A DNA stretch of 64,000 nucleotides from an uncultured Actinomycetes bacterium (GTDB lineage: Bacteria; Actinomycetota; Thermoleophilia; RBG-16-64-13), in the NCBI GenBank assembly GCA_963806155.1, contig CAWDXC010000009.1, forward strand, positions 120,726 through 184,725, written 5' to 3'. Positions 5,720 to 61,844 of this stretch are shown in pieces (the stretch's first letter is position 1; each line of letters opens with the position of its first letter). The position numbers and the translations under genes are program-made. The notes below the pieces were generated by a model. The model saw nothing but the letters and a program-made list of their open reading frames with translations, did no database searches and was not told the origin of the DNA.

Positions 5720-5849
5720 AGCAGGCTGACCGAGCGAACAGAGCGGCAGAGCAGCCTTGCTGGAGGGGTTGTCCCCGCTCGGAGCGACCTGCGAATATGA
5801 TCGCGTGGTTTGGCGATGCTCTCTGGTCGACCCCAAGGAGAAGTGCTTC

Positions 5850-7951: not shown

Positions 7952-8065
7952 GACCTGCCGGTCTAGCCCGGCCGCCAGTCCCGCCAGCCTGACCACTCGC
8001 TGGCCTAGCCGGCTCGGTCCTTCTGGGCCTCTCGGTCGGGCCGACCTCCTACTCAGGCTGGCCTC

Positions 8066-8380
8066 TCAGCTGGAACGCCGCAACGATCTCACCATCCGGC
8101 TGTCGTACCCGGGGCCGGACGCGCCGGGCACACTCGCGACCACAAGCGCGAGCGCGCTTGTGGTCTGCACGCTGAGAAAGGTCGAACTGGCGAAGAATGC
8201 CCCCACAGGCGTGGACAGCATCACCGCGTAGAGGGCGTAGATCGGATTGACTCCAGCCAGCACCCCGGACGCGAGAGCATCGGGCACGCTCTGCACGCCC
8301 AGGACGAGCCCCGACATCAGGTCCGGCCGGATGGTCCTGCGGTCGATCTTGATGCGCTTCTGAAGGCCCAGCCGCTTCAC
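8066..8380 (-). pseudogene. 5' stub of a SulP-family anion transporter
   Basis: PDLMSGLVLGVQSVPDALASGVLAGVNPIYALY...F.SS..LSV.TT is the SulP N-terminal motif; similarity stops after about 90 aa and I see no continuation. Confidence 0.75.
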
Positions 8381-28962: not shown

Positions 28963-29691
28963 TCAGTCCTGCGCCGAACCGATCCACTTAGCCCGCACTG
29001 TGGCGTTGGGGTCGACGACCTCCCGGACCTCGAAACAGTCGGCCAGCCCCCGGAAGGCCTCAAGTCGGTGATCGATCCCCGAGGTTCGGTCTTCCTCGGC
29101 CACCGCCCTCAAGTAGGTCACCAAGGGGATCCCCTTTGACGTGGTCTCAGGCTCCAGGTTCACCAGCACCAGTCCCAGTCTCTCCAACTCCCCGCGGAGG
29201 TGCGCGGGCTTCCAGCCGTCGTGCAGGATGTCCATCCGCTTGCCCATGTCGCCGAACCGCTCGAGGAAGCGCTCGATTTGAGCCTCGTCCGCCCCACCGC
29301 TGAGGCCGAAGCCGTTCATCAGGGAGTGACGGCCGATCGGGATGAGGGCGAAGCCGAACTCCTGGTCGAGGGAGACGATCCTGTCCTTGCACGCCGGACA
29401 GAACCACACCGACCACCGGCTGCCGCTCCTCAGCACGTGGCGCCCGCAACAATCGCACAGTCTGGCCCTCTCGTTGAAGTCGTAGCCCGGCCACCGGGGT
29501 TCGCCGCGCGGCGCGCACCGGCAGGTCTGCCGAGCAAAGTTCCCGTGCTCGGGTGACGGCGGGTCGAAGAGGTCCATGCAGGTCGTGCAGATAGACAAGG
29601 TCCGGTACTCCGGGCGGAAGCCGCAGCCGGCCAGGGGGTCCGGGGTGTTCTTGGCTCGCCGCTTGGGCTGTTCTTGGGGCAGATCGCTCAT
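28963..29691 (-). CDS. Cys-rich hypothetical protein (probable Zn binding)
   Basis: GAGGAG RBS; CxxC, CxC, CxCC and CxxC motifs within 242 aa. Confidence 0.7.
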   Translation of the reverse strand: MSDLPQEQPKRRAKNTPDPLAGCGFRPEYRTLSICTTCMDLFDPPSPEHGNFARQTCRCAPRGEPRWPGYDFNERARLCDCCGRHVLRSGSRWSVWFCPACKDRIVSLDQEFGFALIPIGRHSLMNGFGLSGGADEAQIERFLERFGDMGKRMDILHDGWKPAHLRGELERLGLVLVNLEPETTSKGIPLVTYLRAVAEEDRTSGIDHRLEAFRGLADCFEVREVVDPNATVRAKWIGSAQD

Positions 29692-29969
29692 GTCGCTCTC
29701 CTCTCACCGGGTCGGGACGACCCCGCCCGCCTGGACGCAAAAGGGAGAGCACGACGCCCGGGTACTGGAACCCAGTCCCAGGAACGAGAAGACCCGCGAC
29801 TCCCTTCCATCAGGAGCGCGGGTATCTCCGACGCCGGACGTTTTGTTGCCCGCGGCTGATCGCCTCGGACCACATCTCCACCCTCTGGCGGAAAGGCACC
29901 TTGGGTGTCCGGACCCAGGTTGCCGGCCTCGACGTCTCCATCGAGACACTCCTGATGCTTGGCGCTAGC

Positions 29970-32033: not shown

Positions 32034-33192
32034 ATGCGAACTCTACGAAACGTCTTCCGGCGCAAACTGAGGGTCCTCCTCACTATCTTCGGGATCACCA
32101 TCGGGGTGCTGGCCTTGGTGGTCATGGGAAGCATGGCCGAGAAGATCGACCTGCTCGTTTCGGGCGGAACCGAGTATTACTCCGACAAAGTCACGGTCGG
32201 GGCGGAGGGCAGCTCTTTGTTCTCGAGCGCGCCGCTCTCCCTCAGCAAGTACGACGCCATCAAGAGCGTGCCGGGTGTGGCCGAGGTCTCGGCCGATCTC
32301 GACACCCTGCTCGACACCGAAGCCTCCGTGTCCTTCGGGATGCCTCCCATGATCTCCGGCAGCGACATGCGCGGCCAGGATCTGGAAAGCTTCGAGATGT
32401 CCTATGCCGAGGGACGGGCACTGACCCCGGACGACATCGGGTCGGTGGTGGTGGGATCCGATCTGGTCGATAAGCTCGGCGCGGAGGTAGGCGGCATCGT
32501 CACCGTGCGCGGCGAGCAGTACACGGTCGTCGGGATACTCGACAAGACTCTGACCGCCCCGGACACCACAGTGGAGATGACCCTCCCCGACGCTCAGCGG
32601 ATCTTTATGCAGGATCTGCCCGAGGTGATCCGCGGCCAGGTGGACCAGGCCGATCTGGTCACCGGGTTCGTCGTCTACCCCACGCCGGGCACCGATCCGG
32701 AGGAGCTGGCCACGGCCATCAACGAGGCAGTCCCCGGGGTGCTGGCCACCGGCCCGAAGGCGTTCCAGGAGCAGATAGCGAGCGCCATGGGGATCTTCAA
32801 CGCCATCCTTTACGGGATCGCGATCATCGCGCTTTTCGTGGGCGGGCTCTCGGTCATCAACACCATGACCATGTCGGTGAACGAGCGTACCCGGGAGATC
32901 GGAGTGCGCAAGGCCATCGGCGCCTCCGACGGCCAGATCGTGGGGCAGTTCCTGAGCGAGTCCGGGTTCATCGGCTTGATCGGTGGGGTCTCCGGGCTGT
33001 TCCTGGGTTGGCTGGCTGTGACCGTGACCGACAAACTGCTGGAGCCTCGCAACCTCGATCTGTTCCTCGTCACTCCCAGGCTGGCGATCGGCTCGGTCGC
33101 CTTCGCCATACTTCCTCGGTCTGGTGAGCGGACTCTACCCCTCCCTGCACGCGGCCCGGCTGCAGCCGGTCCTCGCCCTTCGCTACGAATAG
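32034..33192 (+). CDS. MacB/FtsX-type ABC transporter permease, copy 1; frameshift near 33112
   Basis: R..LTIFGITIGV, INTMTMSVNERTREIGVRKAIGA; the corrected frame ends GLYPSLHAARLQPVLALRYE*. Confidence 0.9.
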
Positions 33193-33201
33193 GAGAGAAC
33201 G

Positions 33202-34023
33202 ATGCACGACACGACAAGCACCATCCCGCGCCGCGAGACCGACGGGCGGCGAAACCGCCGACCCCGGGGAAGGCCGGGAACAGGCGCGCGAGCGACAGGG
33301 CCGCCGGCCGCGCGACGACCGGAAGGGCCGCGAAACCGATCATCCGCGGCGAAGCGATCCACAAACGCTACGTGATGGGCGAGGACAACTACGTAGACGC
33401 CCTGCAGGACGCCTCGCTCGAGATCCAGGAAGGCGAGATGGTGGCGAGTCATGGGCCCGTCGGGCTCCGGGAAGTCCACCCTGCTCCACATCCTCGGCTG
33501 CCTCGACTCTGTCGACTCGGGCGAGGTGTGGCTGGACGGGCGCCGGGTGGACAGGCTGAGCCGGCGCGACCTGGCCGCGCTACGGCGGAACGAGGTGGGG
33601 TTCATCTTCCAGACCTTCAACCTGGTGCCGAGCTTCACCGCCATCGAGAACGTCATGCTGGCGGCCGAGTACGCGGGGAAGGGCAGGCGCGAAGCCCGCG
33701 AAGCGGCGCGGAGCGCGCTGGCCCAGGTGGGACTGGCCGACCGGGAGGAGCACCGGCCCACCGAGCTCTCCGGCGGTCAGCAGCAGCGGGTAGCCATCGC
33801 CCGGGCTCTGGTGAACGGCCCCAAGGTCATCTTCGGGGACGAGCCCACCGGCAACCTGGACTCCGCCAGCTCGGCCGAGATCGTCCAGATGATGCACCAG
33901 ATCAACCGCGAGACGGGCACGACCTTCGTCCTGGTCACCCACGACCCGGGCGTCGCCGCGACCTGCGACCGGGTGTTCCAGATGCTGGACGGGCGGGTGA
34001 CGAACGGGCACCACGCCGACTGA
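33202..34023 (+). CDS. ABC ATP-binding protein (LolD/MacB type), copy 1; frameshifts in the 5' part
   Basis: GPSGSGKST, LSGGQQQRVAIARAL, DEPTGNLD; shifts before and at about 33450. Confidence 0.9.
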
Positions 34024-43414: not shown

Positions 43415-44123
43415 CTACACGCCAAGATAGGCTTTGCGGACGTGTTCGCTGTGCAGGAGTTCGTCGGCCGATCCCTGCACGACGATACTGCCGGTCTCGA
43501 GCACGTAGGCCCTCATGGCGAGCTTCAGAGCGAGACGGGAGTTCTGCTCCACGAGCAGAACGGCGGTCCCCGTCTCGTTTATCTCCCGGATGATCTTGGC
43601 GATCTCGGTGACCATCAGCGGCGACAGCCCCATGGACGGCTCATCGAGCAGGAGCACGCGCGGCCGGCACATGACTGGCGGTGGCGATCGCCAGCATCTG
43701 CTGCTCCCCACCGCTCAGCGTGGAGGCCTGCTGCCGGGCACGTTCCCTGAGCCGAGGGAAGTGCCCAAGGATCTCTTCCAGGTCTTTGGCAGTGTCCTTG
43801 CGATCCTTCCTCAGGTAGGCGCCGATCTTGAGGTTCTCGGCGACCGTCATGTAGGGGAACAGACCTCTGTCCTGCGGCACCTGGACGATGCCCATCTTCA
43901 CGATGCTCTGGGGCTTCTGCCCGTCGACCCGGACGCCATCGAACCAGATCTCCCCTCGGGCCGGAGCCTTGAGCCCGGATATCGCCCGCAGGATGGTGGA
44001 CTTGCCCGCGCCATTGCTCCCGATGAGGGTGACGATCTCGCCCGGCTCCAGATGCATGGAGACTCCCTTGACCACCTCCGCGCCTTCGTACCGGACCGCC
44101 AGGTCCTTTATCTCAAGCCACAT
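43415..44123 (-). CDS. livF: LIV-type ABC ATP-binding subunit; frameshift near 43690
   Basis: GSNGAGKST, LSGGEQQMLAI, LLLDEPSMGLSP and VEQN. Confidence 0.9.
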
Positions 44124-44893
44124 CGGAATCAGTCCCCAGATAGGCCTCGATGACCGCGGGGTCGGCCACGCATTCCCGCGGCGTCCCCTCGATCAGCTTC
44201 TGGCCGTAGTTGAGTACGACGCTTCTGGCACAGAGCCCCAGGACGGCGCGCACGTTGTGCTCGACGACGATGATGGTCGTGCCCCTCGAGCTGTTGACGT
44301 TCTTGATGATCCTGATCATCGACGCCGTCTCCTCGGCGTTCATGCCGGTGAGCGGCTCGTCGAGCAGAAGAAGGGTGGGGTCGGACGCGAGTGCGACCGC
44401 CACACACAATTCCCGCTGACTGCCATGGGGCAGGTTGGTGCACAACTCGTGAGTCTTGTCCGTCAGGCCTACGAAACCCAGGAGCTCCATGACAGCGCGC
44501 GACCACTTCCGGCTGTTTCCTCACGTGCTCGGTAGCTCCGCCCGATCACGCCGAAGGGACCGTGCTTCGTCTGCAGGTAAGAGCCGGCAATAACGTTCTC
44601 GAGCACGGTCATGCTCTTGAAGAGGGCGTTCTTCTGGAAGACCCGGGCGATGCCCAGATGGGCCCGGCGATGGGGCGGGTAGCGGGTGATGTTGCGCCCC
44701 CGGAAGGTGATGGTGCCGCCCGAGACCTTCAGGGTCCCGTCGATGAGGTTAAGCAGGGTGCTCTTCCCGGCGCCGTTAGGGCCGATCAGGCCGAGGATCT
44801 CGCCTTCTTCGACCATCAGGTCGACTTTGTTCACGGCTGCCAGACCGCCGAAATGCCGGCTGACAGATCGGTGACTTCGAGCAGTGGCGCCAT
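44113..44893 (-). CDS. livG: LIV-type ABC ATP-binding subunit; frameshifts near 44865 and 44500
   Basis: MAPLLEVTDL..HFGGL.AV, GPNGAGKST, LPHG.QR, LLDEP..G and EAYLG. Confidence 0.88.
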
Positions 44894-44898
44894 CACCG

Positions 44899-45978
44899 TC
44901 ACCGTTCCCCCGGCTCGTCGCCAGACGAGGCGCCGGCTTCATGGGCGCGAGTTCGGCGGCTGCCTGGTCGGGGCCCCGAGTAGCCGACGCCGTCCTCAGC
45001 CGTCTTCCTCGCCTCCAGTCCCGAATCTGTGCCGGGAGGCCGACCAGGCCCATCGGCATGAAGATCATCACCAGGATGGCGATGGCGCCGGTGATCATCG
45101 GCTGGTACTGCTGCATGGAACGCGTATTCTCGGCCAGCAGGGTGAGCACGAACGTGCCGACCAGCGGTCCGATGAAGTAGTCCTTGCCCCCCACCACCAT
45201 GTAGACCAGCAGGTAGATCGACATGGTGACGCCGAACCGCGACGTGGTGTCCGGGCTCAGATTGTGCTGGTAGGACGCGAACAGCGCTCCCGAGAGGCCG
45301 GCCATGAAGGCGGCGATGACGAAGTTCACCATCTTGTAGCCGATGACGTTGATCCCCACCGCGCCGGCCAGAGTGTTGTCGTCCTTGATGGCCCTCCACT
45401 GGAAGTTGATGTACGCCCGCTCGACGTAGTAGAGGATGAGCAAGGCTATCAGAACCACACCGATGGCGATGTAGTAGTAGTTGCCGGGCTTGTTGAAGTC
45501 CACCACTCCGACGAAGGGGACACTCTGCTTTCCCGGACCCGGAACCCCGGTCAGCCCCAGCGAGCCGCCGGTGAGGGAGGTCCAGTAGTAGGCGATCAGG
45601 CGGAAGGTCTCGGCCGTGAGGAGCGTGAGGATAGAGAAGTAGATCCCCCTCACCTTGAGGAAGGGGTAGGCCAGTAGCAGGGCGACGAAGGCCGAGATCA
45701 AGGCGCTCAGGATCAGCGACGGCCAGAACGAGAGACCCCCCTTCATCATCAGCGTGGCTTGGGTGTAGGCCCCTATGATTGCGAAGCCCACCTGCCCGAG
45801 AGAGATCTCGTTGATCAGGGTCACGCTGCGAAGACTGCTCACCATCAGGATGTTGATGGCGAGCAAGGCACAGGACGGTCAGCCAGTATGCGTTGCCCGA
45901 GAGGATTCGAGGCATCAGGAAAACGACGACGACGATCGCGACCCACGGGAGGATCTTGGCCAGTCCCCTCCTAGTCAT
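44899..45978 (-). CDS. livM: LIV-type ABC permease; frameshifts near 45870 and 44990
   Basis: SLGQ.GF..IGAY, G.YF.ILTL..AE, TGG..GL.G.P and F.GPLVG. Confidence 0.88.
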   Translation of the reverse strand: MTRRGLAKILPWVAIVVVVFLMPRILSGNAYWLTVLCLARHQHPDGEQSSQRDPDQRDLSRAGGLRNHRGLHPSHADDEGGSLVLAVADPERLDLGLRRPATGLPLPQGEGDLLLYPHAPHGRDLPPDRLLLDLPHRRLAGADRGSGSGKAECPLRRSGGLQQARQLLLHRHRCGSDSLAHPLLRRAGVHQLPVEGHQGRQHSGRRGGDQRHRLQDGELRHRRLHGRPLGSAVRVLPAQSEPGHHVAVRRHHVDLPAGLHGGGGQGLLHRTAGRHVRAHPAGREYAFHAAVPADDHRRHRHPGDDLHADGPGRPPGTDSGLEARKTAEDGVGYSGPRPGSRRTRAHEAGASSGDEPGER

Positions 45979-46838
45979 GGCCGAGAAGCCCCTTGGGCCG
46001 GAAGAGCAGGACCAGGATGACGATGACCAGCGGAGCCACCGCCGCCGCCGCCGGGCCGAAGAACACAGGGACGATGCCGTCAATGAGACCCAGGATCAAA
46101 CCTCCGATCACCGCTCCCGGGACGCTGCCCAGGCCGCCCAGCACGATGATCACGAGGCCCTTGATCATGGGAAGTCCACCCATGTAGGGCTGCAACTGCA
46201 GGATGGAACCGGCCAAGGCCCCGGCAAGTGCCGCCAGCGCACAGCCGATGGCCATGGCGGACATCGACATCCTGTTGGGATTGATGCCCTTGAGGAAGGA
46301 GCCCTTCACGGTTCTGCGCGCTCGCGACCATCGCCAATCCCAGGCGGGTCCGTTTCAGGAACGCGTACAGCAGAACCAGTGCGAGCACCGAGAAGCCGAT
46401 GGCCAGGATGCGGTCTTTGGGGATCGCGGCCCCGAACAGGTTGAACGATCCTGAGATGAGATAGGGGAGGCTCTTCGTGTAGAGCCCGAACCCCACGACG
46501 ACCGCACTGGCCAGTATCAGGGTCAGGCCGGTGGATATGACTATGGAGCTGAGCACGGGGTCACGGCCCGGTCGGGCTCGGAACAGCCCCCGCTCCAAAA
46601 GGGTCCCGAAGACGGCCATCAGCACCATGGCCACGGCGATCGCCGGATAGAGACCGAATCCCCGTCCCACGAAATAGTAGGTGGCAAAGGCCCCGAGCAT
46701 GTATATCTCGCCGTGGGCGAGCTGGAGGATGCCCATGATGCTCAAGATCAACGTGAGGCCCAGGGCCATCAAGACGTAGAGCCAGCCGAGGGCTATACCG
46801 TTGACTATTGCCTGCAACCAGAGATCTGGGGAGTTCAA
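45971..46838 (-). CDS. livH: LIV-type ABC permease; frameshift near 46305
   Basis: LMALGLTL..SI.GI..LAHGE, RT.LGLA..A.AQN and LGGLGS..GA.IGG. Confidence 0.9.
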
Positions 46839-50275: not shown

Positions 50276-51433
50276 GTGCGTACCTTACGGAACGTATTCC
50301 GGCGGAAGCTAAGGGTGCTGCTTACCATCTTTGGGATAACCATCGGCGTGCTGGCGCTCGTGGTCATGGGAAGCATGGCCGAGAAGATCAACCTCCTCGT
50401 CTCGGGCGGCGTCCGCTACTACTCCGACAAGGTGATCGTGGCGGCCGAGGGCTCCAACATGATGTCCAGCGGCGTGCTCTCCTACAGCAAGCTGGACGAG
50501 ATCAGGGCCGTGCCCGGGGTGGCCGAAGTCCAGGGCGAGGTCGCCACCCTGCTCGATACCGAGGCCTCCATCTCGTTCGGCATGCCCTCTATTATCGGCG
50601 GTAGCGACATGCGCGGCGTGGACTACGAGAGCTTCAAGATCGACTACTCGGAGGGGCGCGACCTGCGCCCGGACGAGACCGGCTCGGTCGTGGTGGGATC
50701 TGATCTGGTCAAGAAGCTCGGGGCCAAGGTGGGCGAGTATGTGACCGTACGGGGTGAACAGTTCCTGGTCGTGGGGATAATGGACAAGACCCTGACCGCT
50801 CCGGACAACTCCGTCTACACAAGCCTTGCCGACGCCCAGCGGATCTTCGCAAGCGACCTCCCAGAGATCGTGAGAGATCAGGTCGACCCGGCGGATCTGG
50901 TCACCGACTTCGTCGCCTATCCCACGCCGGGCACCGATCCCGAGGAATTGGCCGTGGCCATCAACCAGGCAGTCGAGGGGGTGCAGGCCTCCGGCCCGAG
51001 CTTCTTCCAGGACCAGATCGCGAGCGCCACGCAGATCTTCAACGCCATCCTTTACGGGATCGCGATCATCGCCCTCTTCGTGGGCGGGCTTTCGGTCATC
51101 AACACCATGACCATGTCGGTTAACGAGCGCACCCGCGAGATCGGGGTGCGCAAAGCCATCGGCGCCTCCGACGGCCAGATCGTGCGGCAGTTCCTGACCG
51201 AGGCTGGGGTTATCGGCCTGATCGGCGGGATCTCCGGCTTGTTCCTCGGTTGGATCGCGGCCGTCGTGGCCAACGCGCTGCTCGAGTCGTCGAACCTGAA
51301 CCTCTTCCTGGTCACCCCGAGGCTGGCCATCGGAGCGGTCGTATTCGCCGTCGTCCTGGGCCTGGTGAGCGGGCTCTATCCTTCCCTGCACGCAGCCCGG
51401 CTGGAGCCGGTCGTCGCCCTCCGGTACGAATAG
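50276..51433 (+). CDS. MacB/FtsX-type ABC transporter permease, copy 2 (intact)
   Basis: First 38 aa identical to copy 1; same motifs; ends LRYE*. Confidence 0.93.
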   Translation: MRTLRNVFRRKLRVLLTIFGITIGVLALVVMGSMAEKINLLVSGGVRYYSDKVIVAAEGSNMMSSGVLSYSKLDEIRAVPGVAEVQGEVATLLDTEASISFGMPSIIGGSDMRGVDYESFKIDYSEGRDLRPDETGSVVVGSDLVKKLGAKVGEYVTVRGEQFLVVGIMDKTLTAPDNSVYTSLADAQRIFASDLPEIVRDQVDPADLVTDFVAYPTPGTDPEELAVAINQAVEGVQASGPSFFQDQIASATQIFNAILYGIAIIALFVGGLSVINTMTMSVNERTREIGVRKAIGASDGQIVRQFLTEAGVIGLIGGISGLFLGWIAAVVANALLESSNLNLFLVTPRLAIGAVVFAVVLGLVSGLYPSLHAARLEPVVALRYE

Positions 51434-51439
51434 GAGCTC

Positions 51440-52126
51440 GTGATGCCAAGCGTCATCAAAGGAATAGACATCCACAAGCGCTACGTCATGGGCAAGGACA
51501 ACTTCGTCGATGCCCTTCGGGGAGCGTCGCTCGAGGTCGAAGAGGGCGAGATGATGGGGATCATGGGCCCGTCTGGCTCCGGGAAGTCGACGCTGCTCCA
51601 CATCCTCGGCTGCCTCGATACCCTGAACTCAGGGGAGGTCTGGCTGGCCGAGCGCCGGGTGGACAAGCTCAACCGGCGCGATCTTGCCCTGCTGAGACGG
51701 AACGAGGTGGGGTTCATCTTCCAGACTTACAACCTGGTGCCCAGCCTGACTGCCATCGAGAACGTCATGTTGGCCGCGGAGTACGCCGGGAAAGGGAGGC
51801 ACGAAGCCCGCGAAGCGGCGCAGAGCGCCCTCGCTCATGTGGGGCTCGCCGATCGTGAGCGGCATCGGCCCACCGAGCTTTCCGGAGGTCAGCAGCAGCG
51901 GGTGGCCATCGCCCGAGCCCTGGTCAACGGTCCCAAAGTCATCTTCGGGGACGAGCCCACCGGCAACCTGGATTCAGCCAGTTCGGCCGAGGTTGTGGCT
52001 ATGCTGCACGGCATCAACCGCAACACAGGCACGACGTTTGTGATGGTCACGCACGACCCGGGAGTGGCGGAGACCTGCGACCGCGTGCTCCACATGTTGG
52101 ACGGGCTGGTGACAAACTCCCACTGA
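51440..52126 (+). CDS. ABC ATP-binding protein, copy 2 (intact)
   Basis: GPSGSGKST, LSGGQQQR and DEPTGNLD. Confidence 0.95.
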   Translation: MMPSVIKGIDIHKRYVMGKDNFVDALRGASLEVEEGEMMGIMGPSGSGKSTLLHILGCLDTLNSGEVWLAERRVDKLNRRDLALLRRNEVGFIFQTYNLVPSLTAIENVMLAAEYAGKGRHEAREAAQSALAHVGLADRERHRPTELSGGQQQRVAIARALVNGPKVIFGDEPTGNLDSASSAEVVAMLHGINRNTGTTFVMVTHDPGVAETCDRVLHMLDGLVTNSH

Positions 52127-52219: not shown

Positions 52220-53077
52220 CTATGCCGTCCAGGTATAGGCGACGATCGGATTGTCCTCCACCCAGGCTTCCATGGACCCATCGTAGATCTTGACGTTCGC
52301 GTATCCCAGGATCTGCGTGAGTAGGAACCACCAGGTGCTCGCGTATCCACCGACGCCGCAGTAGGTGATGACCTCCTGGTCTTTGTCCGGCCCTATGACG
52401 CCGGTCGCCATCTGCTCCAAGAGCTTGGCCGGCCTGTACGTGCCGTCTCGTTCCCACACCCAGATCAGAGGCAGATTCCGAGCCGTCGGTATGTGTCCCC
52501 TCATGTCGGCGAAGGGATCCACGGACACCCCGAAATACTGGTCGGGGTCTCGCGCGTCGACGATCACGGATAGGCCGATGTGATCCTTCACGTATTCGGT
52601 CGACACGAACATGTCGCCAGCCACGGCGCTGCTGTAGGCGACGGGCGTGATCTGGGGAACGTCGTTCGTCGTCACCCTATCCTCTTCGGCCCACTTCGGA
52701 TGCCCACCGGCCAGGACCGCGACGTTCTTTATTCCGGCGTAGATCAGGGTGACGGCGACCCTAACGGCGTCCGCCAACGGGTACGGTGGAGCCGGTGGCT
52801 CTTCCACCCTGCCGACTATGACCACTTTGGACTCCGCCATCAGCCCGCAGTCGCCGATCACCTTGAGTAAGTCGGGGTTAGGAGGCAGCTCCAGGATCAG
52901 CTTGTCGTCGGAGTCCGCCCAGGCCGAGACCACGGCGAACGGGACCGAGATAGCGCCCGGGATGTGGCCGGCCTCGTACTCCTCCTCCCACCTGATATCG
53001 ATGATCGCCACCCCCCCACCGGGCAGTTGGCCTTCGAGCCAGTCGGTGGAGACGATCGGGTCGATAGATCGTGCCAT
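52220..53077 (-). CDS. Two-domain rhodanese/sulfurtransferase
   Basis: VST.WL, GHIPGA, DAR....Y.G, GHIP.A, active site YCGVGGYA and YDGS..W. Confidence 0.92.
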   Translation of the reverse strand: MARSIDPIVSTDWLEGQLPGGGVAIIDIRWEEEYEAGHIPGAISVPFAVVSAWADSDDKLILELPPNPDLLKVIGDCGLMAESKVVIVGRVEEPPAPPYPLADAVRVAVTLIYAGIKNVAVLAGGHPKWAEEDRVTTNDVPQITPVAYSSAVAGDMFVSTEYVKDHIGLSVIVDARDPDQYFGVSVDPFADMRGHIPTARNLPLIWVWERDGTYRPAKLLEQMATGVIGPDKDQEVITYCGVGGYASTWWFLLTQILGYANVKIYDGSMEAWVEDNPIVAYTWTA

Positions 53078-53171
53078 CTTCGCAAACCCCCTCGAGTGAT
53101 GAGTTGCACTGAACGGCTTCAATCCTGGAGTCTGACAGTGGTGTCATCGTACCTCCTCCGAGGAGGAGTCC

Positions 53172-53303
53172 GTGCGACGGTCACTGGCCGCGATGGACCA
53201 GCTCGCCGAACTACGGCGGGGTATCGACCGGAAGCACGGCCGGCTGACCTCTTCACTCCTCGACGACTTGAGGGAGGAGCGGGACGCGGAGGTTTCCCCA
53301 TGA
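53172..53303 (+). pseudogene. C-terminal remnant (or mini version) of an antitoxin
   Basis: (M)RRSLAAMDQLAELRRGIDRKHGRLTSSLLDDLREERDAEVSP* overlaps the vapC ATG; in-frame stop about 40 nt upstream; no DNA-binding domain. Confidence 0.5.
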
Positions 53304-53722
53304 TCGTGGTCGACGCCGGAATCGTCCGAGCGCTGGTTCTGCCGCTTCCATTCTCCGACCAAGCGGCCGCGAGGATCCGCTCGCTGCGCGAGGAACGAGA
53401 AGAACTCTACGCCCCAGCCTTGCTGGCGTACGAAGTATGCTCTGCGCTCCGGCGGGCGGTCGCCCGCGAGATCCTCGATCCGGATGAAGCCGGAGCTGCT
53501 CTGGATCTGATCGACGCCGTTCGCATCCACCTCATCACAGCCGCTACGTCCCTCCACTCGCGCGCTTTCTCGTGGGCAGCTCGCCTTGGGCACACCAAGG
53601 CCTACGACGCACACTACCTCGCCCTGGCGGAGGAGATGGGCTGTCCGCTTCTTACATCCGACCTTCGCCTGGTCCGGGCAGCTCGCAGCCTAGGCGCCAT
53701 CTGGGTCGAAGCGGTCGAGTAG
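53300..53722 (+). CDS. vapC: PIN-domain VapC toxin
   Basis: MIVVDA, AP.L..YEV.S.LRR, AYDA.YLALAE and T.D.RL. Confidence 0.9.
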   Translation: MIVVDAGIVRALVLPLPFSDQAAARIRSLREEREELYAPALLAYEVCSALRRAVAREILDPDEAGAALDLIDAVRIHLITAATSLHSRAFSWAARLGHTKAYDAHYLALAEEMGCPLLTSDLRLVRAARSLGAIWVEAVE

Positions 53723-53738: not shown

Positions 53739-54590
53739 TCACTCTCCCGCGTAGACGTCCAGCCAGGTGACGTTCGGCAGTTCGGCCAACTTTGTGTGGA
53801 TGAGATGCGTATAGGCGCCGATCGTGCTGTGCACTCGTTCGCCCTCCACCCTGGCGAAGAGCTCGGCCACGCAGTTCCCCTGGAAGAAGTTGAAGAGGAA
53901 GGTCATCTGCGCGGTGAGGATCCCCTCGTTCCAGTAGAGCAGATAGACACCGTCGGCGATCTTGAAGGCGTGGTACTCCTCGGTGTCGGCCTGCCCCGCC
54001 TGGGGCCCCCTGACACCCATCCAGGTCTCGTAGACCCCGGTCAGATAGATGTGCTCGTAGGCGACGTTGTGCGCGTAGGTGTTCAGGAAGCGGGTGCCAC
54101 CCAGAGAGAAGGGCGGATGATAGGCCACCGGGCCATCCGGGGCGATCTCCTCGACCCGCGCGCCCTCGACAGTGGAGATGATCCCCTCGTCGGTCATCTC
54201 CCCCATGACGATGGTGGCCACACCTTTGACGAGATCCAGGGCCATCGCGACCGACCCGGTCTCGCTCGCCAGGTAGGAGACGAAGAAGATGTCGGGCGCG
54301 AGCTCGAACGCTTCGTATGGAACGGTGAAGCGGCCGGCCGCCTTGGCGCCGGCCTCGCTCTCGGCGCCGCCCAAGGCCGCTACCTCCACTTCCTTCTCGG
54401 CGAAGACGTGCCGCGACCGGTCCGGCTTGTCGCGCAGGGCGAGGGTGAGAGTCTTGCCCGCAAGACCGTACGAGTGCGGCGGACGGTTCTCGGCGTAGTC
54501 GAACTCGGGCTTCTCAGAGATGTTCTGCTTCAAAAAGGCCGAGCCCTGGGACTCGAAGTTCTGACGGTCGTGTGCACCTTGCTCTGTCAT
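53739..54590 (-). CDS. moaF: MoaF-family protein
   Basis: Two-domain MoaF pattern: E..PDIFF..Y, YEHIYL, W....G...G.AD and IA..VYL..W.E. Confidence 0.7.
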   Translation of the reverse strand: MTEQGAHDRQNFESQGSAFLKQNISEKPEFDYAENRPPHSYGLAGKTLTLALRDKPDRSRHVFAEKEVEVAALGGAESEAGAKAAGRFTVPYEAFELAPDIFFVSYLASETGSVAMALDLVKGVATIVMGEMTDEGIISTVEGARVEEIAPDGPVAYHPPFSLGGTRFLNTYAHNVAYEHIYLTGVYETWMGVRGPQAGQADTEEYHAFKIADGVYLLYWNEGILTAQMTFLFNFFQGNCVAELFARVEGERVHSTIGAYTHLIHTKLAELPNVTWLDVYAGE

Positions 54591-54733: not shown

Positions 54734-55528
54734 CTATGCCGGCGGTAGGTGGAACAGCCTCCTGGGGTTCTCCCAGGTCACCCTCTCGATCTCGCTCACC
54801 GGCAGGCCGTCCTTCTTCATGCACCAGGCGGCCTTCACCACCGAGAGGTGGCCGGCGCCCCCGTAGCCGAGCTCCGACCCGATGATGATCTTGTCCCTGT
54901 CATCCGGGTTCTGCTCGACGACCTCCGCGGCTTCCTCGGCGGTCAGCTTGTCGTAGCAGATGCTGAGCCCGGTCACGCAACCCGACTTCAGCCGCTCGGG
55001 GATGGTGTTCTTGCCGCTGTGATCGAGAACCGCCTTCTCCAGGGGGAACTTCTCTTCCTTCAGCACGTTGATGATCTGCGTCGTGACGTCAGGCGTCTGC
55101 GGCTCGCGCGGCGTGGGCGTGTGGACGATGATGGGCATGTTCGCGTCCTTGGCCATCGCCAGCTGCGCCCGGAGCAGATAGAGCTCGTGGTCGTTGCCGG
55201 TGTCGAGCCCGATCTCGCCCACGCAGACCACCCGGTCTTCCTTGAGATACTCGGGCATCTTGTTGAGGCACTCCTCCCACTTCTCGGCGGCGATGCCGTA
55301 GAAGGGCACGGCGATCCCCACGTACACCTCGATCCCCATCGAGGCCACGTACTTGACGATGTAGTCGAGGGTCTTCTCCCACAGCTCGAAGAGCGACTCG
55401 GGATAGAACAGCCCCTTCATCAGATGCGGGGACGGAACCATGGCCGCCTCCACCCCGCCCCAGGCCATCCGGAGGATGTCTTCTCCGCCTATCAGGTCCA
55501 GGTGCACGTGCGAGTCGAACAGTCTCAT
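54734..55528 (-). CDS. TatD-related metal-dependent hydrolase
   Basis: DSHVH, VGEIGLD, I.VHTP, LDH and SE motifs. Confidence 0.85.
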   Translation of the reverse strand: MRLFDSHVHLDLIGGEDILRMAWGGVEAAMVPSPHLMKGLFYPESLFELWEKTLDYIVKYVASMGIEVYVGIAVPFYGIAAEKWEECLNKMPEYLKEDRVVCVGEIGLDTGNDHELYLLRAQLAMAKDANMPIIVHTPTPREPQTPDVTTQIINVLKEEKFPLEKAVLDHSGKNTIPERLKSGCVTGLSICYDKLTAEEAAEVVEQNPDDRDKIIIGSELGYGGAGHLSVVKAAWCMKKDGLPVSEIERVTWENPRRLFHLPPA

Positions 55529-55531
55529 GTC

Positions 55532-58047
55532 TCATCCTTCCCATTTGGCGACTTCGACCAGTGTGGAGTTGGGGGCGACCCCCGCCACGTTCTTGGAGAG
55601 CGCCCTGTCGGTGGCCAACAGGTTGACGCATCCGGCCCGGTCCACACTGTCGGGGTTACCGGGCTCGAGGGGGTCATACTTGGCCGAGGCCTCGAAGGCA
55701 TGCAGCGTACCCGGTCTCACCCGGTGAGTCACGTGCGCGCCGCATAGTACCTCGGGCCCGGTCGTTGAAGAGGCGGATGACGTCGCCTTCCTTGATACCC
55801 CGAGCCGCCGCGTCGTCCGGGTGGATGCGGCAGGTCAGGTAGTAGTAGCCGTCGATCAGCATGCGGTGGCCGGGAATGTCCCAGATCCACTCGGTGTGGT
55901 CGTACATGGTGTGGAACGAGAACCGGGGGTGGGGCGAGATCAGCTGAAGCGGGTACCTAGATGTCAACTCGGCGGTCTCGTGGCCTTCCCAGCTGGGGAT
56001 GTACCGCGGCACCAGCGGCCGTTCGGAATGGTCTTGGCTGAGCGCCCTCAGACTCACCGATTCGAACTCGATCTTGCCGCTGTGGGTGCCGAGCTCCTTC
56101 CCCTTGTCGGTACCCCGCTTGGGATTGCCGAGGTCGGGCGTGTCGCATTCGCGACCCTCGGCGAACCACCGCAAAGCTGGAGTAGAGGTTCGCTTCGGAA
56201 TCGGCACAAGGTAGTAGCCCTTCTCCTTGAACTCCTCCCAGGACGACCATCTTGTGAAGGTCGGACCAGTCGTAGTACTTCCTGATCCATTCCTCTTCGC
56301 TGCGGCCCTCGGTGTACTCCTGCTCCATGCCCAGGCGCGCCGCAAGCTGGGAGTAGATCCAGTAGTCGGGCTTCGATTCCCAGAGCGGTTCGACGCACTT
56401 CTTCATGTAGACGATGACCCGGCGGATGTTGCCGCTGAAGGTGTCGGGGCTCATCCAGCCGCAGTTGCCGAACTCGCCGATATCATCCCGCTCGAAGTTG
56501 GTGCAGGCCGGCAGGATGACGTCGGCGAACCGGGTCTCGCCGCACCACCAGCAGTCCTGGTTGACCATGAACTCGAGCTTGGGGCTCTGGTAGGCCCGGA
56601 CCCACTTGCCCCCGGCCGGCAGGGTGCCGATGAACGAGCCCCCGTGCCGGTAGAACATCCTGATCTCCGAGTGGCCCGGCAGGGGGTACTCGTAGGGGAT
56701 GAACTGCTGCTCCAGCGACTTGCTGTTGAAACCTTCACCCAGCCATTTGACCGGAGGATTCAGGATGCTGTCCGGGAAGTGGGTGCGGTAGACGCGCTGC
56801 TTGACCGGGTTGACGAAGATGTTGTCCCCGACCTGCTGCATCCCGCCGTTCTCGAAGCCGGGGAACCGGAATTCGAAGTTCGACGGCGCGCCCATGGTCG
56901 CTCCCCAGATGTTGACGCCCGGCTTTGCCCAGGCCCTGCATGGCTCTGAAGCAGGACCATCAGCCGGGCCCATTCGTGGCCGTAGGCTTCACGGCAGGCG
57001 CCGCCCATGCCGCCGCGCATGCCGGTAGGAGAGGGTGGTGCGCTTCGACGCCCATTCTCGGGCGAGCGCCCAAATGACCCGGGCCGGGATGTCGCATTTC
57101 TCCGCGGCCCAGTCGGGGGTGCGCAGGAACGCCGTCGTTCTCGCCGAGGATGCTCTTCTGGAACTCCTCGAAGCCGACCGTGCGGTCGGCGACGTACTCC
57201 TTGTCGTAGGTCCCCTCGGTGAGCCAGACGTAGGCGATGGCTTCGGCCAGGGCGGCGTCGGTGCCGGGCCGCGGGGCGATCCATTTGTCGTTCATGATGC
57301 CGGCGGTGTAGTTGCAGTGAGGGTCGATGAAGATCATCTCTTATCCCCAGCTGCTTCAGCCACACGCGCCACTCGGCCGAATCCTGGCCGCTGTAGGCTC
57401 CGCGGTTGGTGTCGGGATCGCTCGACCAGAAGACGAGCAACTCGGTGTTCTGCATCACGTCTTCGAGCAGGTCGAACTGCTCGGGAGGCCCCATCCGCCA
57501 GTAGAAGCCCCATACGTGGCAAGAGCCCCAGAGCCAGCCCTCCCAGCTATCGGGATTGTCGAAGTAGTCGGTGGACCCGATCATCTTGAAGAAGCGGTTG
57601 AGAGTGCTGCGGTGTGTCCCCATGCTGCCCGCGTTGTGGTGGGAGGAGCTCATGTAGGCGACGGCCTCGGGGCCGTACTGGGCGCGGATGCGCTTCAGCT
57701 CGCTGCCGACGATGTCGAGGGCTTCGTCCCAGCCGATGCGTACGTAGCCCGACTTGCCGCGGTTCTCGGGATGGCGCTCGCCGTTGGGGTCGAAGTCGAC
57801 GCGCCGCATCGGGTACTTGATCCGGTCGTCGGCGTAGGTCCGAGCCTTCTCGGTCATGCCGTACGGGGCGACCGTGTCCTTGCGCAGAGGGGCTGAACTC
57901 CTGGCCGTGAGCTTCGAGAGTCCAGGTGGGGACCTCTTCGTCGTCGGCGAAGACGAGCGGCCGCACGCGGATGATCTTGTCGTCCTCCACGTGGACGAGG
58001 ACCGGGCCGCCACCGTGGCCGATGTTGGTGCAGATCTTCTCGGCCAT
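55532..58047 (-). CDS. athL: Molybdopterin (DMSO-reductase family) catalytic subunit similar to pyrogallol transhydroxylase AthL; at least six apparent frameshifts
   Basis: GGPV.V.V....IIR, RI.YPM.R..FDPNGER, SSHH, NPDSWEGW, PEQ.DLLED, FWSSDP.TN, FAD.ILPACTNFER.DI.EF.NC, SPHPRFS.HT and N..LVE..KW.G; no Tat signal. Confidence 0.85.
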
Positions 58048-58999
58048 CAGCGATCTCCCGCGTCCGAGCCGCCCTGGCGCCCTCGCGGCGCCCGGCGCGC
58101 CCGTCGCGCCGGGGCCCGCGGCGGCGCCCACCGGCGCCAGTACGATCTCGCCCAGGTAGACGTCCATGGCGGTCTTGGCGACCAACTCCCGGCTCTCGTA
58201 CCCGAGCGGCTGTCCACCCTCACGGTGAAGGTCGCACCAGCCGAGAGCCCGTCGAACTCGAAGTCGCCGTAGTTGTCGGCCAGAACGGTGCGGGCCACGG
58301 GCACGCCCGGGAGCCGCCCGAGCTCTGGCCGCCCTCCGTACCGCGGAGCGTGACCTCGGCCCCTTCGCCGCACCCGTCGGTGTCTCCGAAGACCACGGTT
58401 CCGGCCACGAACCTCTTCGGCAGTCCGATGTACGTCACCTTGTCCCCCAGCCCGTATTCGGGATGCAGGGCCTCGGTCCGGCCCGACGAGACCAGCTTGG
58501 CCACCTCGCTCCTGGGATCGTCCAGGTCGCCGAAAACAAGCGCCCGGGTCGGGCACGCTTCCACGCACCGGGGCTCCTTCCAGCCCTTGTCCAGCAGATG
58601 GGCACAGAAGGTGCACTTCTGCGGGATCTGTTTCTCCTCGTTCCAGTAGATGACCCGGTACGGACAACTGTTTGCCAGTTGCTGCTGGTCGACGGCCTTC
58701 TCGGGATCGATCAGAACGATGCCGTCGTCCCGCTTGTAGATGGCTCCGGTCTCCTGGGACGCCTCGAGACACGTTGCGTGCTCGCACTGGAGGCAGGGGA
58801 TGGCCGTGTACGCCACCTTCATCTTCGGGTATTGGCCCCTTTCCTTCTCCACCAGGCGCATCCAGTAGTGCCCGGTCTGGGGCTGGGAAGCGGAGTAGGG
58901 AGGGAAGTCGTTGCCGCAGTACTCGTCCCGGCAGGCCAGGAAGCAGTTGTAGCAGCCGTTGCATCTGGTGACGTCCATCACCATTCCGTACTTCGTCAT
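58047..58999 (-). CDS. athS: Fe-S subunit similar to AthS, with a C-terminal beta-sandwich domain; frameshifts near the 3' end
   Basis: CNGCYNCFLAC, PCLQCEHATC, CPY, KCTFCAH, CVEAC; tail TVLADNYGDFEFDGL matches the AthS C-terminal domain; TGATG coupling to athL. Confidence 0.85.
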
Positions 59000-59228
59000 A
59001 GGCACTGCCCCCCACTTGACTACCCGGCTCCGACGTGGGCAAGGATGCCCAGCCAGCTTACAAGAAAAGGCGGCCGGGAGGTAGAAGACCGCTGGTGGCT
59101 CATCCGCCGCTGCGGCTCGCCCGTGTGAGTCTGGCTCCGTGCTACGCTTGGCCCGTCGGCACTCTGTTCCCGCCTGACACGCTAGCGTTGCGACGAGAGT
59201 TGTCCACCTACGCGGAAAGGAGCATGTG

Positions 59229-60039
59229 ATGGGGGAACTGCACTACGAGACCAGGCATAGGTTGAAGCCTCACGACTTCGCCATCCTGGACAAGTTCGAG
59301 TTCAAATACGCTCCGGTCGGCTTCAAGTTCCTCAATGTCAAAGAGGATCTCGAGGGTCTGGATCTGGAACCACTTTCGGGCACAGGGAAGTACGGCGGTC
59401 ATTCGAAGATGGCCTGGTGTGAGATGCTGCTCGAAGCTCAGCAGGGAAAGGCTTTCTACGCCACTGCGGAGAACCAGTACTGCGAGCCGGGCATCTTCCT
59501 GTCGGGCCATGGCGAGTTAGACCCCCTGGCCGCCGGGGGGCGGATCGGTCCTCCCTTCGACATCTATGCCGACGAGCGCCCCAACAGACGAGTCTATAGC
59601 CACGTCACCGTGCTTGCCCCAGGGTCGACATACGCCACCGCCTTTGCCCCGGTGAGCAGGCTGACCTTCGACCCGGACCTGCTGATCCTCGCCTGCGACA
59701 ACATGGATCAGGGCGAGCGTGTCCTGAGAGCCACCCAATGGGACACGGGCGACATGATCGAGAGCCACATGACCTACGTGATGGGCTGCAACTGGCTCTA
59801 CACCTATCCGTATGTGACCGGCAAGATCAACACTGTCTGGACGGGCGTGTGCCTACGGCATGAAGATGTACAAGCTCTATCCCCCGGGCCTGCCCATCGT
59901 GGTGATCCCCTGGCACCACATGGATAGGGTCCTCAGGAACATGAACGAGATGCCGTGGAGCCTTCCCGGACATACCGATCAGAAAGACGAGGCCTATCAG
60001 AGAGGATACGAGCGGCTGGGAGTCGAGGACATCATCTAG
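59229..60039 (+). CDS. DUF169-family protein; frameshift near 59850
   Basis: PVG.KF, WCEM...A..G..F......C..G, FDPDL and C.W.Y..P...G..N; the corrected frame ends EDII*. Confidence 0.75.
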
Positions 60040-60079: not shown

Positions 60080-61275
60080 CTAGTCCACGAACATCCTCAA
60101 AGCCTGCTCGATCAACTGTTGCACGTGCCCGTCGTCATCTTCCCGAGTGCGGCCGAGTAGGCCCTCGCGCCAGCGGGTGGGAAGCGACTTCTCGCCGTGA
60201 AGCGCCCCCGCAGCCGCGCCTACGATGGCGGCCACGGTGTCGTTGTCCTTGGTGTCGTTCACCGCGCGCACGATCGCTTCTTCGGGATCTCCCCCATGGC
60301 GGGCCAGTATATGGAGGACGCAGGGCACCGTCTCCAGTAGGTAGGCGCCCGAGTACCAGCGCTCCGTCGCCGCCAGAACGCTCTCGCCCCCGTCGATGGC
60401 CGGGAGTACCTCTTGCTCGACCCGCTCGCACAGGCTGCCCCGGAAACCATCTCCGGGGACCCTCGAGCGATAAAGGGCGCCGCCGGCACCTCGGGTGCCG
60501 CCGCCGCACCTCGGACGGCGCCGGTGGCCGCGACCGGGGCGGCCTCCGCCGGCCGCGCATAGCGGAGGAACGTCTCCGGCCACCAAGGGGCGGGAGGGGT
60601 CCCGCCCTCCGGCCAGGTCAGGCACTCCGCCAGAAGTCCGACGAAACCCACACTCGCCACCACGGCAGCCTCGTCTCGGTGTGTCAGGACCGTGGCCGCC
60701 ACCACGTCGACCCACAGGGCCTCGGTCATGCTCCGCAGGTGCGGAAGAAGCACGGGGGCGATGCGCATGAGAGCGCCGTTGCCCGCACTCGGCTGCCCGG
60801 CCTCGAACCAGGCCTTGCTCCCAAACCGGTAGGCGAGCAGAAAGTCGGTCACCGTGCTCCCGATACCAAAGATCCGGTGCTGCCGGGTGAAGGTCTCAGC
60901 GAGATCGGCCGGGTCGAGGTATCCGCGACGCAGTAGTGACTCCAATGTCCAGAAGGATAGCTGGCTATCGTCGGAAGGAAGCCCGACCGGCAGCATCTCT
61001 TCCCGGCGATTGGGCAGATAGTCGCGGACCTCTCCGTGGACCCGGCGCCTCTCTACCGGTCTCATGCCCTCGCTGGTGTTCCCGAGGGAGTCTCCGATGG
61101 CCAGGCCCAGGAGCATGCCCCGGATCCGATCCCGCGGCACTTCCGCACCCGCCGCCGCGGCGCCCGTCCGGACAGGCGCGGGCGGGACAGGGATCGAGCG
61201 GCCTACCCAGGGCAGCAGCGCCTGCCACTCCGCTTCGGAGTAGTGATAGGCAGCCAGGGAGCGTCTGTCGATCAT
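60080..61275 (-). CDS. ADP-ribosylglycohydrolase family protein; frameshift near 60475
   Basis: GLAIGDSLG, SDDSQL, SAGNGALMRIAP, TH and D.DT.AAI.GA..GA.HG. Confidence 0.9.
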
Positions 61276-61388
61276 CCCGATACCTCTCTGGGGCGGGTCG
61301 CCGACCCGGTCCCGGGCACCGCCGACTCCGCCAGCACCCTTTCCACAGCTTCCCGGTTCTTCCAGAGCGCGCACCCGCCGCCGACATA

Positions 61389-61844
61389 CTACGACAACTC
61401 CGACAGGGCGCGCAGGCCGACGTCGGCGACGCCCGGCTCCCCTCCCCCTGTGTGCGCGGTGATATCCCACTCACCCCAGCGACGCACGATCCGTCGCTCC
61501 CGCACTTCGATGATCTCTATGCCGGAAACGGGCGTCTTCCGCCAGGTGGGGCCCACGCCCATGAAGGCTTCACTGTTCGTCCCCTCCGCGGACCAGCGCA
61601 CCGCGACCCGGCCGGCGGTCTCGTCCACCACCAGATCCTCGACCCTGGTCTGCAGATCGGGAAAGATGCGCACCAGTTCGGCGAGGGCGGTGGCAAAGGC
61701 CTCCTTGCCGGCAGCCCGACCCGCTGCCGAGCGATCCTCGAAATCCGGGGAGTGGAGCCGGTCGAACAGCTGCCAATCCACCGGAGCGCACCAAAGCGAG
61801 ATCCATTGCTCGGCGATCTCTTCTAATTCTGCGCGGTGCGACAT
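61389..61844 (-). CDS. SnoaL-like ester cyclase/NTF2-fold protein
   Basis: FPDL...VEDL.......VA.RW...GT....F.GV.PT......G. Confidence 0.88.
   Translation of the reverse strand: MSHRAELEEIAEQWISLWCAPVDWQLFDRLHSPDFEDRSAAGRAAGKEAFATALAELVRIFPDLQTRVEDLVVDETAGRVAVRWSAEGTNSEAFMGVGPTWRKTPVSGIEIIEVRERRIVRRWGEWDITAHTGGGEPGVADVGLRALSELS

Follow-up and report, generated by a model that had tools for sequence, protein, structure and literature searches.

The 64,000-nt stretch of DNA analysed here (hereafter the window; contig CAWDXC010000009.1, from an uncultured Actinomycetes bacterium) carries on its minus strand a gene coding for the alpha subunit of a molybdenum (Mo) enzyme related to AthL, the alpha subunit of the pyrogallol-phloroglucinol transhydroxylase from Pelobacter acidigallici. 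Comparison with its relatives placed this gene in a discrete, previously undescribed subclade within the known AthL-like family, in which the tyrosines equivalent to Tyr404 and Tyr560 of AthL have been lost and a gene for a TatD-like metallohydrolase adjoins alpha in every core locus examined. This clade-conserved loss of tyrosines, linked to a distinct gene neighbourhood, forms a comparative signature that suggests a changed substrate or reaction. An earlier note on this DNA had proposed as much, and at the level of sequence comparison the proposal stands; its further suggestion of a candidate uncharacterised branch of the dimethyl sulfoxide (DMSO)-reductase family does not, since the subclade is nested in an AthL-like family that had already been noticed (PMC4959651). 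The reading we prefer, to which we give about an even chance, is that alpha belongs to a variant AthL-family (de)hydroxylase rather than to a pyrogallol transhydroxylase, that it feeds the TatD-like hydrolase, and that the frameshifts interrupting the gene are artefacts.

The Phe404/Trp559/Met560 subclade

The alpha subunit, read through the frameshifts described below, matched 4v4c_A (P. acidigallici AthL) over residues 10–869 with ∼48% identity and an E-value of 2.6e-260 (HMMER). Its bit score was 869 to AthL and no higher than 300 to trimethylamine N-oxide and DMSO reductases (E 1e-88 and weaker). A Pfam search identified PF21423 (AhtL-like_1st, the AthL-specific N-terminal domain), PF00384 and PF01568, and did not match PF04879 (Molybdop_Fe4S4); no NCBIfam model reached its cut-off, bisC_fam giving 397 bits against a cut-off of 1017. 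The N-terminus, MAEKICTNIGHGGGP, contains neither a twin-arginine (Tat) signal nor an iron-sulfur (Fe-S) Cys motif. An intact orthologue, P0001, is 90% identical to the window protein, and its AlphaFold model (predicted local distance difference test, pLDDT, 76; predicted template modelling score, pTM, 0.81) superposes on 4v4c_A with a template modelling (TM) score of 0.91; the shared fold and the kept Mo ligand motif NPDSWEGW are as the earlier note had expected. We take alpha to be the subunit that carries out catalysis in an AthL-family Mo-bis(pyranopterin guanine dinucleotide) (Mo-bisPGD) enzyme of the cytoplasm. It is closer to AthL than to DorA, TorA, BisC or DmsA, is cytoplasmic by its N-terminus and lacks the FS0 cluster, as do members of the AthL-like (RhL/PgtL, Ser-coordinated MopB) group. 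The features of an AthL-type orthologue were found as regards the fold and N-terminal domain, Ser175, Asp174, His144 and an adjacent beta-subunit gene; Tyr404 and Tyr560 were not.

Relatives of alpha are numerous: more than 5,000 matched at E≤1e-50 in the protein database, the best 120 being 60–90% identical. In a search of representatives at 50% clustering, the whole family, probably with AthL included, collapsed to one or two representatives. The relatives detected in a plasmid search (44–46% identity, from rhizobia and Burkholderia) were annotated only as ‘molybdopterin-dependent oxidoreductase’.

Residues were mapped with the HMMER alignment to 4v4c_A and a 122-sequence MAFFT alignment. 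The coordinates given earlier for this gene are exact and the motifs SSHH, NPDSWEGW and EF.NC reported for it are present, SSHH and NPDSWEGW aligning exactly; the alignments agree that the Mo ligand Ser175, together with His144, Asp174 and Cys557, is retained. Tyr404, which we take to be a catalytic or co-substrate-site tyrosine of AthL, is replaced by Phe, as the first inspection of the sequence had indicated. For Tyr560, read at that time as ‘Met or Trp’, the aligned residue is Met, while the Trp sits one residue before it (559). The changes in the four active-site segments are given in Table 1; in addition, Trp354 is changed to Met. The active-site signature reads HNASTHRDSLMFENFNCGWMPD in the window protein and HMWNYRHDSHWYAEFNCSGYPD in AthL. 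The loop after position 410 is indeed shorter, with 20 residues against 42 in the 408–450 loop of AthL, but this proved uninformative: nearly all of the ∼835-aa homologues have 20–24 residues here, and the short loop was rejected as a clade marker for being family-wide. By this comparison it is Pelobacter AthL that departs from the family, through an insertion at 408–450, and not the window gene.

The substitutions set a small group of sequences apart. Among the 19 closest relatives (66–91% identity), all have Phe404-Glu405 and either Met or Leu at position 560; Trp559 with Met560 was found in 17, the rest carrying Phe/Tyr559 or Leu560. Most of the 19 also share His153-Arg154, Ala/Ser147, Thr/Ile152, Leu/Met180, Met354 and Cys557. 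In the ∼100 next relatives (60–63% identity), Tyr404 was present in 100%, Gly559 in 99% and Tyr560 in 96%, and most have Trp147, Tyr152, Arg/Lys153 and His180. Since Phe404 occurs in 19/19 sequences on one side and Tyr404 in 100/100 on the other, and Met/Leu560 (19/19) likewise faces Tyr560 (96/100), the substitutions are not due to chance. Further, 31 alignment columns were clade-specific, in the sense that the clade residues are essentially absent outside the clade; they include 153, 154, 404, 405, 559, 560, 562 and 563. When full-length loci in species-representative genomes were inspected, the Phe/Trp/Met signature was present in 8 of 73 and Tyr/Gly/Tyr in 62. The Phe404/Trp559/Met560 core and most of the other positions are common to P0001–P0019, L001–L005, L007–L009, L088 and L089.

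When a tree was built by neighbour joining and rooted with a paralogue family of ∼39% identity, the 26 Phe/Trp/Met sequences were monophyletic (bootstrap 100/100), and AthL fell outside the whole 835-aa family. In the alignment to AthL, the tyrosines are lost, not conserved. L005 is the earliest-branching member; it still has Tyr152 and is missing the TatD-like neighbour. The window gene, with the full signature and a TatD-like gene beginning 3 nt after the alpha stop codon, belongs to the clade. The closest genomes are those of the uncultured Actinomycetota metagenome-assembled genomes (MAGs) MFD00032.bin.1.257, RBG_16_64_13 and MFD00032.bin.2.39, the last of which is syntenic with window positions 50–62 kb at 82–87% DNA identity. 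Other members come from Dehalococcoidia and from one deltaproteobacterial MAG, and related sequence was present in wetland and peat metagenomes. The searchable literature yielded no account of the subclade, of its residue signature or of the TatD-like gene beside it.

The TatD-like partner gene

The gene for the TatD-like hydrolase adjoins alpha in 11 of the 11 core-clade loci examined (the window, L001, L002/L003, L004, L007, L008, L009, L010, L088, L089 and the P0002 contig), and is missing from ∼70 Tyr-type loci with the single exception of L071. Its family is small (179 matches at E≤1e-10 in 5.8 billion proteins), and the best PDB match was 3guw (AF_1765, uncharacterised). The amidohydrolase-type metal-ligand set is conserved (E105, H136, D169-H170 and E219), and the N-terminal HxH was seen in the window sequence. 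Searches of PDB and NCBIfam yielded no function for the TatD-like protein, nor for the MoaF-like and DUF169 proteins encoded nearby.

In the three loci that were inspected for them, relatives of the hydrolase at 47–53% identity had no AthL-like gene beside them. In L087 and L090, the TatD-like gene lies after a three-subunit enzyme of the xanthine dehydrogenase (XDH) family (FAD_binding_5, Fer2, MoCoBD) and before caprolactamase-like HyuA/HyuB, with RidA, a tripartite ATP-independent periplasmic (TRAP) transporter, IclR and a UbiD decarboxylase in the surroundings; among NCBIfam models, this Mo enzyme came nearest to XdhA and 4-hydroxybenzoyl-CoA reductase, without reaching the cut-off of either. 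L091/L092 has the arrangement HyuA-HyuB-RidA-RidA-TatD, after which come XdhC and a MocA-like gene. The AthL-type locus L004 is arranged as RidA-alpha-TatD-MBL-HyuB-HyuA-creatininase-TRAP, where MBL stands for a lactonase-like metallo-β-lactamase. Judged by gene content, L004 and the XDH-type loci share one module, with the Mo enzyme swapped between two unrelated families. The TRAP transporters found in L004, L087, L088 and L089 suggest an organic-acid substrate, and the MBL, creatininase-family and Amidohydro_2 neighbours suggest hydrolytic ring chemistry. By itself, the module of L087, L090 and L091/L092 would seem to be a cluster for anaerobic ring degradation that has not been described before.

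Reading frame, candidate reaction and alternatives

The alpha gene cannot be read in any single frame, a result on which three-frame translation, tblastn with the closest intact homologue and frameshift-aware protein-to-DNA alignment agree. It contains eight +1 single-base insertions (near 57891, 57338, 57127, 57027, 56945, 56926, 56244 and 55754), only three of which extend a short homopolymer; 835 codons, the stop codon and the eight extra bases account for its 2516 nt. With the insertions removed, the 835-aa protein has no internal stop. Against its nine closest relatives, this read-through protein differs by one singleton, and at the columns conserved in the family it shows no substitution; the intact orthologues have more. 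The frameshift sites were also compared with contigs of related strains, and at seven of the eight the extra base was absent in related wetland contigs. Breaks were found nearby as well: two or three in the C-terminal third of the beta gene (∼58321–58333, ∼58205–58214 and ∼58074; net -1), a +1 insertion in the DUF169 gene, and one at ∼60485 that splits an ADP-ribosylglycohydrolase gene into open reading frames (ORFs) at 60259–61470 and 60080–60715. The frameshifts cluster at 55.5–61.5 kb of the window, while 50.2–55.5 kb is clean; a uniform assembly error rate was rejected on account of this concentration. Split alpha genes of a similar kind are present in the related long-read-style MAG loci L010, L074, L079 and L084. 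The exact alpha sequence was not found in DNA sequencing runs (best share of words 0.11), and no RNA-seq run carrying the gene was found.

The eight alpha frameshifts most likely stem from errors in the consensus of a long-read assembly, and the organism probably has an intact gene. This is favoured over a pseudogene because the read-through protein shows no sign of relaxed constraint and because neighbouring genes are also broken. That alpha and beta are a genuine, very recent pseudogene making no enzyme, the frameshifts being real, is improbable: eight frameshifts in a 2.5-kb gene plus those in beta, next to TatD-like, MoaF-like and rhodanese genes that have none, would fit such decay, as would the lack of a sequencing run with the exact sequence. 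However, all eight alpha events are +1 insertions and bacterial pseudogenes decay with a deletion bias; the substitution record is cleaner than that of intact orthologues; and the DUF169 and ADP-ribosylglycohydrolase genes, together with the other MAG loci mentioned, show like breaks. Elsewhere in the window, the codon-usage Viterbi path moves to another frame of the same strand, with no stop codon between, at 5821–8187 (+), for example at ∼6747, and at 43416–46824 (−), where Liv-type ABC permease/ATPase genes lie at 44.5–46.8 kb; these switches are probably further frameshift errors.

The substrate of alpha would still bind Mo through a hydroxyl or enolate oxygen, aided by His144 and Asp174. 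The polar site of AthL, which is thought to hold the tetrahydroxybenzene co-substrate, would be lost, its place being taken by a hydrophobic lining (Phe, Trp, Met, Leu, Met) that is roomier at 147 and 152. With this site gone, co-substrate-mediated pyrogallol transhydroxylation is unlikely. By analogy with the XDH-type modules and resorcinol hydroxylase, the enzyme would most likely act on an organic acid, either cyclic or (hetero)aromatic, which would undergo net hydroxylation with water or, in the opposite direction, dehydroxylation, with electrons passing via the Fe-S beta subunit where present. Glu405, fixed in the clade and Ala or Ser elsewhere, may serve as acid/base in place of Tyr404. 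The TatD-like hydrolase would then take over the product and open its ring, be it that of a lactam, a lactone or a beta-diketone, by hydrolysis. The (de)hydroxylation of another aromatic or heterocycle, put forward in the earlier note, is consistent with this context, given the adjacent hydrolase and its relatives in XDH-type modules. A bolder version, which we hold only tentatively, is that the enzyme has a new Mo-bisPGD activity in which the Phe404-Glu405 pair stands in for Tyr404, and that in wetland Actinomycetota and Dehalococcoidia it acts as a non-orthologous replacement of the XDH-type (de)hydroxylase in an anaerobic ring-degradation module (Mo enzyme, TatD-like hydrolase, caprolactamase-like HyuAB, then RidA), the substrate being an N-heterocyclic or a lactone/lactam-forming aromatic acid.

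Several points weigh against a variant (de)hydroxylase feeding the TatD-like protein. The ∼835-aa family, its Tyr-containing majority included, is known from sequences alone, and the changed residues were placed in the pocket by sequence alignment alone. The catalytic or active-site roles assigned to Tyr404, Cys557 and Tyr560 are those that Messerschmidt and colleagues reportedly described for AthL in 2004. The window cluster has no HyuAB, RidA or TRAP genes, so that the pathway is borrowed from Dehalococcoidia and other loci, and the frameshift density in alpha and beta is roughly 30 times that of most of the window. Finally, L002, L004 and L088 carry alpha and the TatD-like gene without an adjacent beta, which fits a redox-neutral reaction better than net hydroxylation. 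Such a reaction on another substrate (an intramolecular hydroxyl shift, an isomerisation or, as acetylene hydratase performs it, a hydration), needing no electron acceptor or co-substrate and followed by the TatD-like protein, is a serious rival and the most probable of the alternatives, yet we consider it unlikely. AthL is itself redox-neutral, and His144, Asp174 and Cys557 are retained. However, stand-alone alpha genes are also common in Tyr-type Dehalococcoidia loci, so a missing beta is not specific to the clade; in the Actinomycetota and deltaproteobacterial clusters, beta stays closely linked; and the parallel with XDH-type redox enzymes points to net electron transfer.

The TatD-like protein could instead assist pterin-Mo enzymes, as an accessory protein or in their maturation, in which case its position would be silent on the substrate and alpha would still be a variant AthL-like enzyme. 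Its gene does occur beside Mo enzymes of two unrelated families with nothing but the pterin cofactor in common; in L091/L092 it adjoins XdhC and a MocA-like nucleotidyltransferase, both cofactor-maturation genes; and the window has rhodanese and ‘MoaF’ genes close by. On the other hand, HyuA, HyuB, RidA and TRAP recur in both kinds of locus, which is a mark of catabolism; AthL-like genes in their large majority do without a TatD-like neighbour; and the metal-ligand set is that of a hydrolase. We regard this role as improbable. Less probable still is a canonical pyrogallol-phloroglucinol transhydroxylase orthologue with neutral residue differences. AthL is the best PDB match, the Mo ligand and the three other residues named above are kept, and a beta of BthL architecture is present, but the identity to AthL is just 48%, AthL branches outside the whole 835-aa family, Tyr404 (invariant in the sisters, replaced throughout the clade) is accompanied by changes at seven other pocket-segment positions, and the partner gene is distinct. 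A variant (de)hydroxylase acting ahead of the TatD-like hydrolase remains the reading we prefer.

Features of the window and comparison with known systems

The features of the cluster and the active-site segments of alpha are listed in Table 1. On the minus strand the gene order is beta, alpha, TatD-like, MoaF-like. The beta subunit is 77–87% identical to those encoded by the intact beta genes of L007 and L010. Outside the Actinomycetota versions of the cluster, no MoaF-like gene was found.

Table 1. Positions in the window of the genes of the cluster and of the active-site segments of alpha (AthL residue numbers)
Feature	Position	Strand	Remarks
Alpha subunit, AthL-like Mo-bisPGD catalytic subunit, 835 aa read through	55532..58047	−	ATG at 58047, stop 55534–55532
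SSSHHNAGSMGTHRS segment of alpha	57606..57650	−	His144 equivalent kept; Trp147 to Ala, Tyr152 to Thr, Arg153 to His, His154 to Arg
NPDSWEGWLWG segment of alpha	57525..57557	−	Asp174 and Mo ligand Ser175 kept; His180 to Leu
FEFRFPGFENGG segment of alpha	56842..56877	−	Tyr404 to Phe (FPGY to FPGF), Ala405 to Glu; both fixed in 19/19 clade members
EFGNCGWMSPD segment of alpha	56443..56475	−	Cys557 kept; Gly559 to Trp, Tyr560 to Met (NCSGY to NCGWM)
Beta subunit (BthL-like), Fe-S ferredoxin domain (Fer4_11) and C-terminal CarboxypepD_reg/Ig-like domain	58047..59005	−	End abuts alpha start
TatD-like amidohydrolase-superfamily metallohydrolase, 264 aa, intact	54734..55528	−	Starts 3 nt after alpha stop
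MoaF-like protein, 283 aa, intact	53739..54590	−	143 nt downstream of TatD-like gene
DUF169 protein, divergent from beta, one +1 insertion at ∼59850	59226..60036	+	Syntenic in L001, L008 and L010
Tandem-rhodanese sulfurtransferase, intact	52220..53122	−	Syntenic in L001, L008 and L010; cluster association weak

Between the MoaF-like and rhodanese genes lies a gene for a PIN-domain (VapC-like) toxin with a preceding short ORF, possibly its antitoxin (53143–53722, +); L010 has a weakly similar stretch at this position. Two pairs of FtsX-permease and ABC-ATPase (MacB-like) genes, at 32035–34005 (+) and 50276–52126 (+), both match a single copy in L010, with 81–86% and 87% DNA identity, respectively. 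A SAM-I/IV riboswitch (S-adenosylmethionine riboswitch, RF01725; 46.3 bits against a gathering threshold of 41.1) was found at 29832–29963 (−), upstream of a 242-aa ORF (28963–29691), and the codon model assigns no coding potential to the region around it, 29.7–32.0 kb. At 13415–18394 (+) there is an uninterrupted ORF of 1659 aa, for which the codon model is weak at 14487–15122.

A second AthL-like paralogue family, of 860–870 aa and ∼37–41% identical, was seen in L004 (3560–6160), L006 (11489–14098) and L088 (12137–14722), and as second matches in L014, L016, L046, L051, L059, L070 and L072. It keeps His144, Asp174 and Ser175, has Leu at 404 and a different 554–563 segment, and is also uncharacterised. 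Its genes often lie directly beside an 835-aa member, and a second beta-like gene follows in at least L016, L017, L046, L051, L059, L070 and L072.

Anoxic soils, peat, aquifers and sediments are very rich in genes of the AthL-like type, some loci having two or three copies. They are routinely labelled ‘pyrogallol hydroxytransferase’ and used to infer polyphenol turnover, as in arguments on the peatland ‘enzyme latch’. The existence of at least one clade with lost tyrosines and a dedicated hydrolase partner shows this annotation to be over-extended; the residue signature and a gene-pair rule separate the clade from the rest of the family. It offers a natural experiment on the Mo site of the AthL family without Tyr404, and the link of the TatD-like protein to XDH-type Mo enzymes provides a handle on an unknown anaerobic ring-degradation pathway.

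Among the closest known systems is AthL/BthL of P. acidigallici (PDB 4v4c; EC 1.97.1.2), with which the window enzyme shares PF21423, Ser175 in NPDSWEGW, the absence of a Tat signal and of an N-terminal Fe-S cluster, and a partner beta with ferredoxin and Ig-like domains. The two differ in gene order (alpha-beta in Pelobacter, beta-alpha in the window), in the obligate TatD-like neighbour of the window clade and in the 408–450 insertion, which the window clade lacks, as does the whole 835-aa family. The ∼835-aa proteins of Chloroflexota and Actinomycetota have already been noticed as ‘pyrogallol hydroxytransferase’ (PMC4959651; see also PMC3971608). This family, now known from MAGs of Chloroflexota, Actinomycetota and Desulfobacterota, resembles the window protein in identity (about 60–65%), length, short loop, domain set and habitat (wetland, peat, aquifer and sediment). 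In contrast to the window clade, it keeps Trp147, Tyr152, Arg/Lys153, mostly His180, Tyr404, Gly559 and Tyr560, and has no TatD-like neighbour except in L071.

The gut-bacterial catechol dehydroxylases (Dadh, Cldh and others) and acetylene hydratase are likewise bis(molybdopterin guanine dinucleotide) enzymes acting on aromatic rings or small unsaturated substrates, and within the DMSO-reductase family they make up a separate clade (PMC7028382). Alpha does not group with them: it lacks Molybdop_Fe4S4 (PF04879), and its match to acetylene hydratase (2e7z) reached only E 6.6e-18, against 2.6e-260 for AthL. The XDH-family Mo (de)hydroxylases occupy the same position beside a homologous TatD-like hydrolase (47–53% identity), with HyuA/HyuB, RidA, TRAP and IclR neighbours; they differ in having an unrelated fold and cofactor form (Mo-pterin, with flavin adenine dinucleotide and 2Fe-2S subunits) and no homology to alpha. 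This shared position suggests an analogous pathway role. For the type of reaction proposed, the closest precedents, likened here by description only, are resorcinol hydroxylase RhLS of Aromatoleum anaerobium and 3,5-dihydroxybenzoate hydroxylase DbhLS of Thauera aromatica AR-1; no Aromatoleum or Thauera locus was among the 80 best of the genome scan. Both are alpha/beta enzymes of the AthL family that carry out the net water-dependent hydroxylation of phenols (PMC10100899).

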